Shown piece by piece: positions 5,545 through 5,870 of a stretch of 32,000 bases of DNA. The stretch's first letter is position 1. Each line of letters begins with the position of its first letter. Under the pieces are notes generated by a model. That model was not told the origin of the DNA. It worked only from the letters and a program-made list of their open reading frames with translations, and did no database searches. The stretch is from Polynucleobacter sp. AP-Titi-500A-B4 (GTDB lineage: Bacteria; Pseudomonadota; Gammaproteobacteria; Burkholderiales; Burkholderiaceae). Position numbers and translations under genes: made by a program. Where the stretch lies: positions 2,023,352-2,055,351 of the forward strand of contig NZ_CP061311.1 in assembly GCF_018688095.1 (NCBI RefSeq), given 5' to 3'.

Positions 5545-5552
5545 GCAATTCT

Positions 5553-5623
5553 TGGTGGCCCGGGGCGGAATCGAACCACCGACACAAGGATTTTCAACTC
5601 TGTCCCCCAGACTAAACTCCCGC
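5553..5623 (-). pseudogene. degenerate tRNA-Phe(GAA)-like sequence; only the 3' half is intact
   Basis: Minus strand: ..GCGGGAGTTTAGTCTGGGGGACAGAG TTGAAAA TCCTT GTGTC GGTGG TTCGATT CCGCC CCGGGCC ACCA. The anticodon loop, variable loop, T-arm and 3' acceptor are canonical. No complementary 5' acceptor strand exists, and 5 nt (CAGAG) disrupt the anticodon stem. Confidence 0.7.
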
Positions 5624-5742
5624 TAGATCTCAAAAGGTTTACCCCACCATAGACAAACTTTGTGCACAAAACTTTATTAGGTGTTTGTATGGGATTGATT
5701 TGGTTGAGTTATTTTGACCCACGCAAGGAGTGCGGGTGAGTT

Positions 5743-5812
5743 TGGTGGCGTAGTGGGGATTTGACTGACACAGGGATGACGACTCCTTGTTGTGATCGGG
5801 GTACCCCACGCA
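5743..5812 (-). pseudogene. second degenerate tRNA-like sequence (70 nt, T-stem deleted)
   Basis: Minus strand: TGCGTGGGGTACCCCGATCACAACAAGGAGTCGTCATCCCTGTGTCAGTCAAATCCCCACTACGCCACCA. It ends in ACCA and has a TCAAATCC T-loop remnant. The anticodon-like loop differs between copies A and B. Confidence 0.5.
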
Positions 5813-5870
5813 TGAAGTGTCCTTTTAAAGGACGTTGCTCATTAATACTGTAAGTGAATGATAGATTCCT

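Follow-up and report, generated by a model that had tools for sequence, protein, structure and literature searches.

Long direct repeats in a Polynucleobacter genome are probably the right ends of two related elements inserted serially at tRNA-Phe

The insertion of genomic islands into tRNA genes is textbook knowledge. The tRNA is rebuilt in the process, a displaced 3′ fragment is left behind, the crossover lies at the anticodon loop or in the T region, and tandem arrays are observed (PMC4383910). Arrays of partial tRNAs that lie between elements and integrase-less cargo have been described for the tycheposons of Prochlorococcus (bioRxiv 10.1101/2020.12.28.424599), and partial-tRNA arrays also occur in the additive islands of freshwater Methylophilaceae (PMC10872708). 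Here we analyse a locus of Polynucleobacter sp. AP-Titi-500A-B4 at which two long direct repeats with tRNA-like sequence had been pointed out in an earlier note. The window, which is the whole 32,000-nt stretch of DNA analysed, comprises bases 2,023,352–2,055,351 of a single 2.08-Mb contig (45.5% G+C). We consider it probable that the repeats are the attR sites of two related integrative elements that inserted serially at tRNA-Phe, and that these elements belong to a family specific to this freshwater genus. The mechanism is ordinary, and the example is unusually crowded and well preserved. Its particular features are a long arm that hardly varies in length and has a tRNA mimic embedded in it, arm modules that recur in inverted orientation, and the persistence of the arm in 11 genomes that have no close integrase.

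The elements share with the islands of Islander class A (Williams 2002; Hudson et al. 2015, PMC4383910) an internal tyrosine integrase, a pair of ends of which one has the intact tRNA and the other its co-oriented 3′ fragment, sequence identity that runs from the anticodon loop past CCA, and an arrangement as tandem islands. They differ from class A in the 236-nt arm, the near-fixed length of the unit, the second degenerate tRNA-like stretch and the signature palindrome at the border, as well as in the position of the integrase, which a cargo slot separates from the end by 2–7 kb. The comparison with tycheposons and additive islands (10.1101/2020.12.28.424599; PMC10872708) concerns the general plan, which is similar: in an aquatic bacterium with a streamlined genome, tRNA 3′-end copies separate stacked elements and integrase-less cargo, older insertions are displaced outward by newer ones, and the cargo includes defence and transport functions. 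Host group, target tRNA and gene set are all different. Here, in contrast to those systems, even small cassettes carry conserved arms on both sides of the core. No primase or helicase, the replication hallmark, was detected among the backbone proteins, of which only an AAA-type ATPase was matched. As in the attP of lambda-type phages, long arms surround a short core, and palindromes and repeated motifs at fixed distances would suit an intasome; unlike in lambda, one of the candidate arm sites mimics a tRNA anticodon arm. Among the papers searched, none named Polynucleobacter together with tRNA-Phe.

Alignment with MAFFT and blastn places copy A at 5549–5834 and copy B at 27258–27543, collinear on the minus strand as the earlier note had described them, with 90.2% identity over 287 nt and a spacing of 21,709 nt. 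These two are the only long copies in the whole 2.08-Mb genome. The repeats are real, but the extent of 283 nt first assigned to them was 2 bases too long: measured from palindrome to CCA, the unit is 281 nt and consists of a 236-nt element-borne arm and a 45-nt tRNA-Phe 3′ part that begins in the anticodon loop. The 3′-terminal ~90 nt, within which the Phe-like part lies, are without differences between the copies, in agreement with the ~88 identical nt noticed before. The features of the two units are as follows.

5553–5833, minus strand: copy A, the probable attR of element A (P arm of 236 nt and 45-nt tRNA-Phe 3′ part); homologues in 17 other genomes and in metagenomes
27262–27542, minus strand: copy B, the probable attR of element B
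5553–5597, minus strand: core of copy A, identical to tRNA-Phe from TTGAAAA to CCA; presumed strand-exchange region
27262–27306, minus strand: core of copy B, like the core of copy A
5659–5670, no strand assigned: 12-nt palindrome TTTGTGCACAAA within the copy A arm, at which a protein dimer may bind
27368–27379, no strand assigned: 12-nt palindrome TTTGTGCACAAA in the arm of copy B
5743–5811, minus strand: "first tRNA-like remnant" of copy A, a degenerate tRNA-like stretch of 69 nt whose end is CGCCACCA
5772–5788: anticodon-arm mimic AAGGA-GTCGTCA-TCCCT in the remnant of copy A
5793–5833, minus strand: outer arm module of copy A, with palindrome GTCCTTTAAAAGGAC (5819–5833) followed by TCATG and GGGGTACCCCG; right half of a 41-nt inverted repeat
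27528–27542: palindrome GTCCTTTAAAAGGAC of copy B
5522–5544, minus strand: terminator hairpin 3′ of copy A, of the same type as that after the true tRNA-Phe
about 27230–27255: terminator 3′ of copy B

All the parts that had been proposed for each copy, namely a remnant, a spacer with a palindrome, a Phe-like 3′ half and a terminator, could be located, and the remnant loop does differ between the copies (GTCGTCA and CATCATA), with its flanking strands AAGGA and TCCYT retained. The 5′ third of the remnant, which the first reading had taken for an acceptor and D region, belongs instead to the inverted-repeat arm module. Identity of the core to tRNA-Phe extends past CCA through AGAA, and a block of 49–50 nt is 100% identical in many genomes; over the longer stretch that includes the terminator, 5502–5602 is 94% identical to window-equivalent 39690–39792. 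The 12-nt palindrome TTTGTGCACAAA has only two exact copies in the genome, both of them in these arms, and is nearly invariant across homologues.

When compared with the 37 tRNAs of the genome, the remnant consensus matched tRNA-Phe best (score 33, against 14 ± 2.5 for shuffles, with 0 of 2000 as high), followed by Met (31) and Glu (30), and ATCCTTGTGTC is common to the remnant and tRNA-Phe. The motif AGGA-N7-TCCT, the form taken by the tRNA-Phe anticodon arm, occurs 19 times in the genome. Five of these sites fall in the island, where 0.37 would be expected, and they lie in tRNA-Phe itself, the remnant of copy B, two cassette arms and the left arm of element A; the remnant of copy A carries the variant AGGA-N7-TCCC. 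No other site sharing the 7-nt centre of the mimic was found in the genome or in five other islands. We read the remnant as a putative core-type site, old or mimicked, that has been kept in the arm, where its conserved half-sites and free centre would suit a protein dimer.

The sole tRNA-Phe(GAA) gene lies at window-equivalent 39741–39816 on the minus strand, 7.7 kb beyond the window. Comparison with this genuine gene, which the earlier note had recommended, revealed that its 3′ 45 nt are identical to both cores. Its last 22 nt, TCGATTCCGCCCCGGGCCACCA, recur in 11 further copies, all co-oriented, at window positions from 999 to 39117; the 12 copies that include tRNA-Phe itself are thus confined to 39 kb, with none elsewhere in the genome, where five looser matches represent the T arms of other tRNAs. 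Among the 11 co-oriented copies are the two long units, which begin in the anticodon loop, and nine short ones, which begin in the T loop. Together they form an additive island of ~39 kb, and, given their spread from 999 to 39117 behind tRNA-Phe, the window represents the distal four-fifths of a 39-kb insertion array. The short cores within the window are the following.

25581–25602, minus strand: short tRNA-Phe 3′-end core at a cassette joint, one of eight in the window
999, 1595, 2351, 2823, 4172, 23707 and 26155: the seven other short cores

The short units have only the last 22–26 nt of the tRNA in common with the long units and possess an arm of their own, AGGAT-N5-ATCCT-CGGCCCTGG, before the core, which argues against the suggestion that the long repeats are the masters from which the short ones derive. 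A terminator follows most of the short units. The cassettes have arms on both sides, with AGGAT-N5-ATCCT-CGGCCCTGG before the core and a terminator and inverted palindrome module after it. At several short cassette ends (25581–25630, 2351–2400 and others), an anticodon-arm mimic, AGGAT-TAGAC-ATCCT, is followed by CGGCCCTGG, which resembles the tRNA 5′ acceptor strand GGCCTGG, and then by the core from T loop to CCA. A selected hairpin in these short "minihelix" units was considered and rejected: tRNA identity fixes the 3′ strand, so that changes in the 5′ strand go uncompensated.

Adjoining the true tRNA-Phe is a core-bounded cassette of 0.65 kb that encodes a BrnT/BrnA toxin-antitoxin pair (window-equivalent 39153–39667; L048:7153–7667). 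A 91% identical BrnTA cassette stands first in the array of genome G019 and fourth in that of genome G150, with different neighbours each time. The 21.7 kb between the two repeats contain the complete element A and three small cassettes, which carry, respectively, DUF6803 with a 110-aa gene, a lipoprotein, and a molybdopterin oxidoreductase with a cytochrome c.

Element A is predicted to span 5553–23728 (~18.2 kb) and to be closed by copy A. These borders are derived from another species (genome G025), in which the same element is located directly after tRNA-Phe: there, the 240 nt that follow the intact tRNA form an arm with 90% identity to window 23725–23486. The element contains the following features.

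23486–23728, minus strand: left junction (attL side), with the core at 23707–23728, a 220-nt left arm, and AGGATGTCTAATCCT at 23559–23573
23488–23528, minus strand: left half of the 41-nt inverted repeat, lying within the P′ (left) arm
16419–23502, minus strand: second cargo slot, holding a NERD protein and the Hxs operon, with palindromes at 23488–23502 and 16419–16433
15035–16309, minus strand: tyrosine integrase of 424 aa, matching PHROG 1 integrase (E 4.6e-32, residues 47–420)
5834–8875, minus strand: cargo slot between the palindromes 8861–8875 and 5819–5833

The 41-nt inverted repeat formed by 5793–5833 and 23488–23528 comprises the palindrome, TCATG and GGGTACCCCG. Its halves are 80% complementary (score 50, against 17 ± 2.5 for shuffles), and the pair is also present in the G025 element. 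The 424-aa integrase matches an XerA-like model at E 1.9e-7, falls below threshold for Pfam PF00589, and is ~24% identical to the nearest phage integrases. In element A and its G025 counterpart alike, the second slot is followed by the integrase (97% amino acid identity), the backbone, six shared cargo genes and the 281-nt unit, in that order; the slot itself holds different genes in G025, including a cytosine-methylase-like one (named from its sequence alone). With the borders of the mobile units now exact, the Hxs antiphage operon and the NERD gene can be assigned as cargo of the 18-kb element and the surrounding genes as separate small cassettes. At the left joint of element A, the window retains only the 22 nt of the tRNA from T loop to CCA, preceded by the arm of the neighbouring cassette, because later cassettes inserted there. 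As serial insertion predicts, a cassette crossing over near the T loop would later have split the rebuilt tRNA from element A.

Element B is predicted to extend from 27262 to ~39117, with its left core at window-equivalent 39096–39117, and to be closed by copy B. It possesses its own integrase (36004–37278) and an HD-domain gene, and its left arm is of another type, without the inverted module. Self-comparison of the region matched modules of A and B at 15034–16397 and 36003–37371 (89% identity), 13246–14831 and 34165–35748 (69%), 11243–12424 and 32146–33328 (81%), and 8890–10536 and 29785–31448 (88%). The shared modules encode the 424-aa integrase, the AAA-type ATPase, a DUF6641 protein, three proteins without matches and a 188-aa recombinase (PF00589, E 4.7e-25), along with the Polynucleobacter-1 RNA, for which Rfam gave two matches in the window. 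Between the backbone and the long unit, each element carries unrelated cargo. When the invariant tRNA part is left out, the arm of A is closest to that of G019 (92.7%) and the arm of B to that of G025 (89.2%), with 87.1% identity between A and B. The order of elements and cassettes also differs between species, the DUF6803 cassette being proximal to A here and distal to the A-like element in G025. The variable order and the arm-only identities together indicate that A and B were acquired separately, with no local duplication.

These results bear on the proposal that the repeats are the paired ends of one 21.7-kb composite island, as the earlier note had suggested, or the products of a local duplication, and that they matter mainly as substrates for deletion. 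The two are direct repeats 21.7 kb apart with identical last ~90 nt, recombination between their identical cores could neatly remove the 21.7-kb segment, and such a deletion could well occur as a secondary event. However, the same arm lies on the same side in both copies, so that both are right ends, and the left end of A is found at 23486–23728; the A and B modules are 69% to 90% identical, each with closer relatives in other species, which argues against local duplication. The repeats do appear to be integrase-type att scars on the 3′ part of tRNA-Phe, as had been proposed, but in the form of the right ends of two stacked elements, and we regard paired ends or a local duplication as very unlikely. 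It had been noted beforehand that relatives with the same gene order between the repeats and no empty-site variants, together with many further long copies scattered in the genome outside islands, would count against an island origin; the order differs between species, and no long copies were found outside tRNA-Phe islands among the genomes examined.

The search for homologues, which covered other genomes of the genus (150 genomes, one per species) and 70 freshwater metagenome contigs, recovered 61 arm-bearing copies, 55 of them distinct. The length is exactly 281 nt in 40 of the 61, the 45-nt core shows no variation, and every one of the 61 copies becomes identical to the tRNA at TTGAAAA, in the anticodon loop; this recurrence is far above chance. 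The start of identity at an anticodon-loop subsite supports a recognised class of island crossover (PMC4383910). The sequence 3′ of the core falls into many unrelated classes across these copies, which is what a joint between mobile units should show. In complete genomes, the unit is always situated 2–33 kb from tRNA-Phe and on the same strand, and each of the five islands retrieved in full has one intact tRNA-Phe at its proximal end. Of the features by which Islander recognises islands, an intact tRNA at the array start, a co-oriented displaced 3′ fragment, an internal tyrosine integrase and a crossover subsite were found. In this set of one genome per species, neither an excised circle nor an empty site was seen, and viral contigs searched for a packaged or viral form gave no match.

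The arm is also linked to the integrase. Among the 150 sampled genomes, all seven with an integrase at least 96% identical carry the arm, a count that is descriptive only, as is the one given below for arms without a close integrase, since the sampled genomes are related to each other. Elements whose integrase is 82–92% identical end in the same 45-nt tRNA part, and their arms are homologous and strongly diverged, being alignable only in the blocks TTTTGYGCACRAA, GGTGG and TAACC. That arm and enzyme diverge together is as would be predicted for cognate binding sites. The loci with diverged arms (L119–L122, in genomes G036, G102, G016 and G079) lie 340 nt upstream of their tRNA-Phe halves, and the arms of G036 and G102 start with the sister palindrome GTCGTTTTAAACGAC instead of GTCCTTTWAAAGGAC, which indicates that the palindrome type changes with the element lineage. 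The arm is found without a close integrase in the 11 genomes mentioned above, one of which, G053, is devoid of any integrase of the family at E ≤ 1e-30; in G053, tRNA-Phe, four cargo genes and the arm constitute a 2.4-kb unit. Thus, the arm can persist, or move, without the enzyme. On the left side of arm-bearing units, conservation of the arm between genomes is limited to the type shared by A and G025. The locus supplies a complete candidate attP of ~500 bp (arm, core and second arm) for an undescribed tRNA-Phe-specific integrase family, which is common in abundant freshwater bacteria and might be turned into a tool for the genetics of this group, in which manipulation is difficult.

The anatomy of the units, their homology to tRNA-Phe, the matched ends, the orthologue beside an intact tRNA, the link to the integrase and the fact that arm and cargo have separate histories are the observations on which we base the reading of the repeats as attRs. 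For the catalysis, the crossover point and the assignment of proteins to sites, we infer the following scheme. The element would carry an attP composed of the long arm, a 45–49-nt stretch copying the 3′ part of tRNA-Phe, and a second arm. The 424-aa integrase would carry out recombination between this stretch and the tRNA-Phe gene of the chromosome, with the anticodon loop as the most likely crossover point. The left end would receive the rebuilt tRNA, and the old 3′ part would pass to the right end, where, joined to the arm, it would form the 281-nt unit. The outer palindrome module, AAGGA-N7-TCCTT and the 12-nt palindrome would represent arm docking sites for the integrase and its helpers. 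Later insertions at tRNA-Phe would push older elements outward, which would result in A, B and many integrase-less cassettes in one array.

A different explanation is that the 281-nt unit encodes a non-coding RNA resembling a tRNA, which would be transcribed together with the cargo genes or after them, end at the terminator and be handled at its 3′ end by tRNA enzymes. The 3′ end of the unit does have a perfect T arm, an acceptor strand and CCA, with a terminator behind it, its length is nearly fixed at 281 nt, the fold energies of the two copies are somewhat below those of shuffles (z-scores of −1.8 and −3.0), and the elements carry a real structured RNA in Polynucleobacter-1. However, a tRNA or tmRNA gene was rejected: ARAGORN reported 0 genes in the window, and Rfam gave no tRNA and no hit on the units even at E ≤ 10, in keeping with the earlier view that neither copy is a functional tRNA. 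A 5′ strand complementary to CCGGGCC is absent from the units as read, and no promoter-like site was found in them. A structured RNA was rejected as well, on the basis of consensus folding, single folds and pair counts, which revealed no covariation: the RNAalifold covariation term is only −0.52 kcal/mol, the two copies have different minimum-energy folds, and the anticodon-like hairpin exhibits three double changes, all from one poorly aligned sequence, with one pair broken in 7 of 16 sequences. The best-conserved blocks are DNA palindromes, and the element repeats the arm, inverted, at its opposite end, which is a DNA-level feature. We therefore judge an RNA gene distinctly improbable. A small ORF starting at a conserved ATG (5812–5814, minus strand) was also rejected, as its frame ranges from 1 to 72 codons among the 55 copies and variation by codon position (260/253/147) is least at third positions. 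Nothing supports an RNA or coding role, and the attR reading corrects two tempting views, one in which the repeats are decayed tRNA genes and another in which they form both ends of a single island.

We also considered whether the variable loop might be linked to those parts of the neighbouring Polynucleobacter-1 RNA that vary, and rejected this, since no match to the arm was apparent by eye. The differences between the A and B copies of this RNA look, again by eye, like compensating changes within its own helices.

The arrangement of the array raises the further idea of an integron-like docking platform, in which the core of the unit, like attI, would receive integrase-less cassettes with tRNA-Phe-mimicking ends, and the enzyme would be provided by an integrase-bearing element. 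All of the 281-nt units examined in six genomes are followed by units bounded by tRNA-Phe cores, mostly cassettes of 0.5–3 kb; the cassettes carry conserved arms on either side of the core; and the BrnTA cassette has different neighbours in three genomes. Integron attI/attC arrays are similar in being one-way arrays of small, mostly single-gene cassettes, each with a terminal recombination-type repeat. Here, however, the repeats are tRNA 3′-end copies, and neither an IntI-type integrase nor attC features such as the R″/L″–L′/R′ symmetry are present: integron-integrase models score far below their cut-offs (46 bits versus 265 for TIGR02249 and 25 versus 435 for NF011946), and the ends of the unit are not complementary to each other. 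Cassettes are also found between the true tRNA and the elements, which makes the tRNA itself a target, and plain serial insertion at the tRNA fits the array equally well. We consider a docking platform of this kind improbable.

Comparison with G025 also revealed a tract, 8307–5826 (2,482 nt), that is 100% identical between the two genomes, and whose first mismatch on the right, at 5825, is the centre of the palindrome 5819–5833. Beyond the tract, the arm differs from that of G025 at 22 positions (~92% identity), the integrase gene is ~90% identical and the left arm 90%. The tract points to a very recent exchange, with one putative breakpoint in or beside the palindrome. Since the perfect identity stops in the outer palindrome and the arm is only ~92% identical, the arm appears to travel with the backbone, and not with the cargo. 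It is conceivable, though unlikely, that AAGGA-N7-TCCTT, with its freely variable 7-nt centre, and the outer palindrome are working exchange sites, which together with the core would make up an integron-like platform that swaps cassettes or cargo in trans; the 2.5-kb perfect tract ending at the palindrome centre would then be the trace of such an exchange.

The genes of the cargo tract at 5826–8307 include an OmpA-like gene, a methyltransferase, DUF2789 and others, and the left limit of the tract lies inside a gene, at 8308. The 188-aa tyrosine recombinase found in both elements (11477–12043, plus strand; 32381–32947, outside the window) consists of the catalytic domain only and is similar in size to the FimB/FimE invertases; the boundary palindromes are candidate substrates.

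Several further observations were made among the homologues. At G042:C1:1323813–1325282, two exact tRNA-Phe 3′ cores occupy a second locus, 640 kb from the tRNA-Phe island of that genome. On metagenome contig Ga0209499_1002142 (L094; 12,904 nt), the same 80 nt, comprising the 3′ end of a different tRNA and its terminator, are present at both ends, and the interior contains four tRNA-Phe cores and one 281-nt arm. Such a contig could represent a circle or, more likely, the stretch between two copies of the second tRNA repeat; it was rejected as a circular contig, given that its terminal 80-nt repeat is the 3′ end of another tRNA and more likely reflects an assembly break at the repeat. Finally, the 40 nt directly before the core (window 5603–5640 and homologues) fall into four discrete sequence types across genomes, three of which contain AGCGAAA or AGCGA, a motif that is also present in the region of the Polynucleobacter-1 RNA (for example, at 10440–10560).
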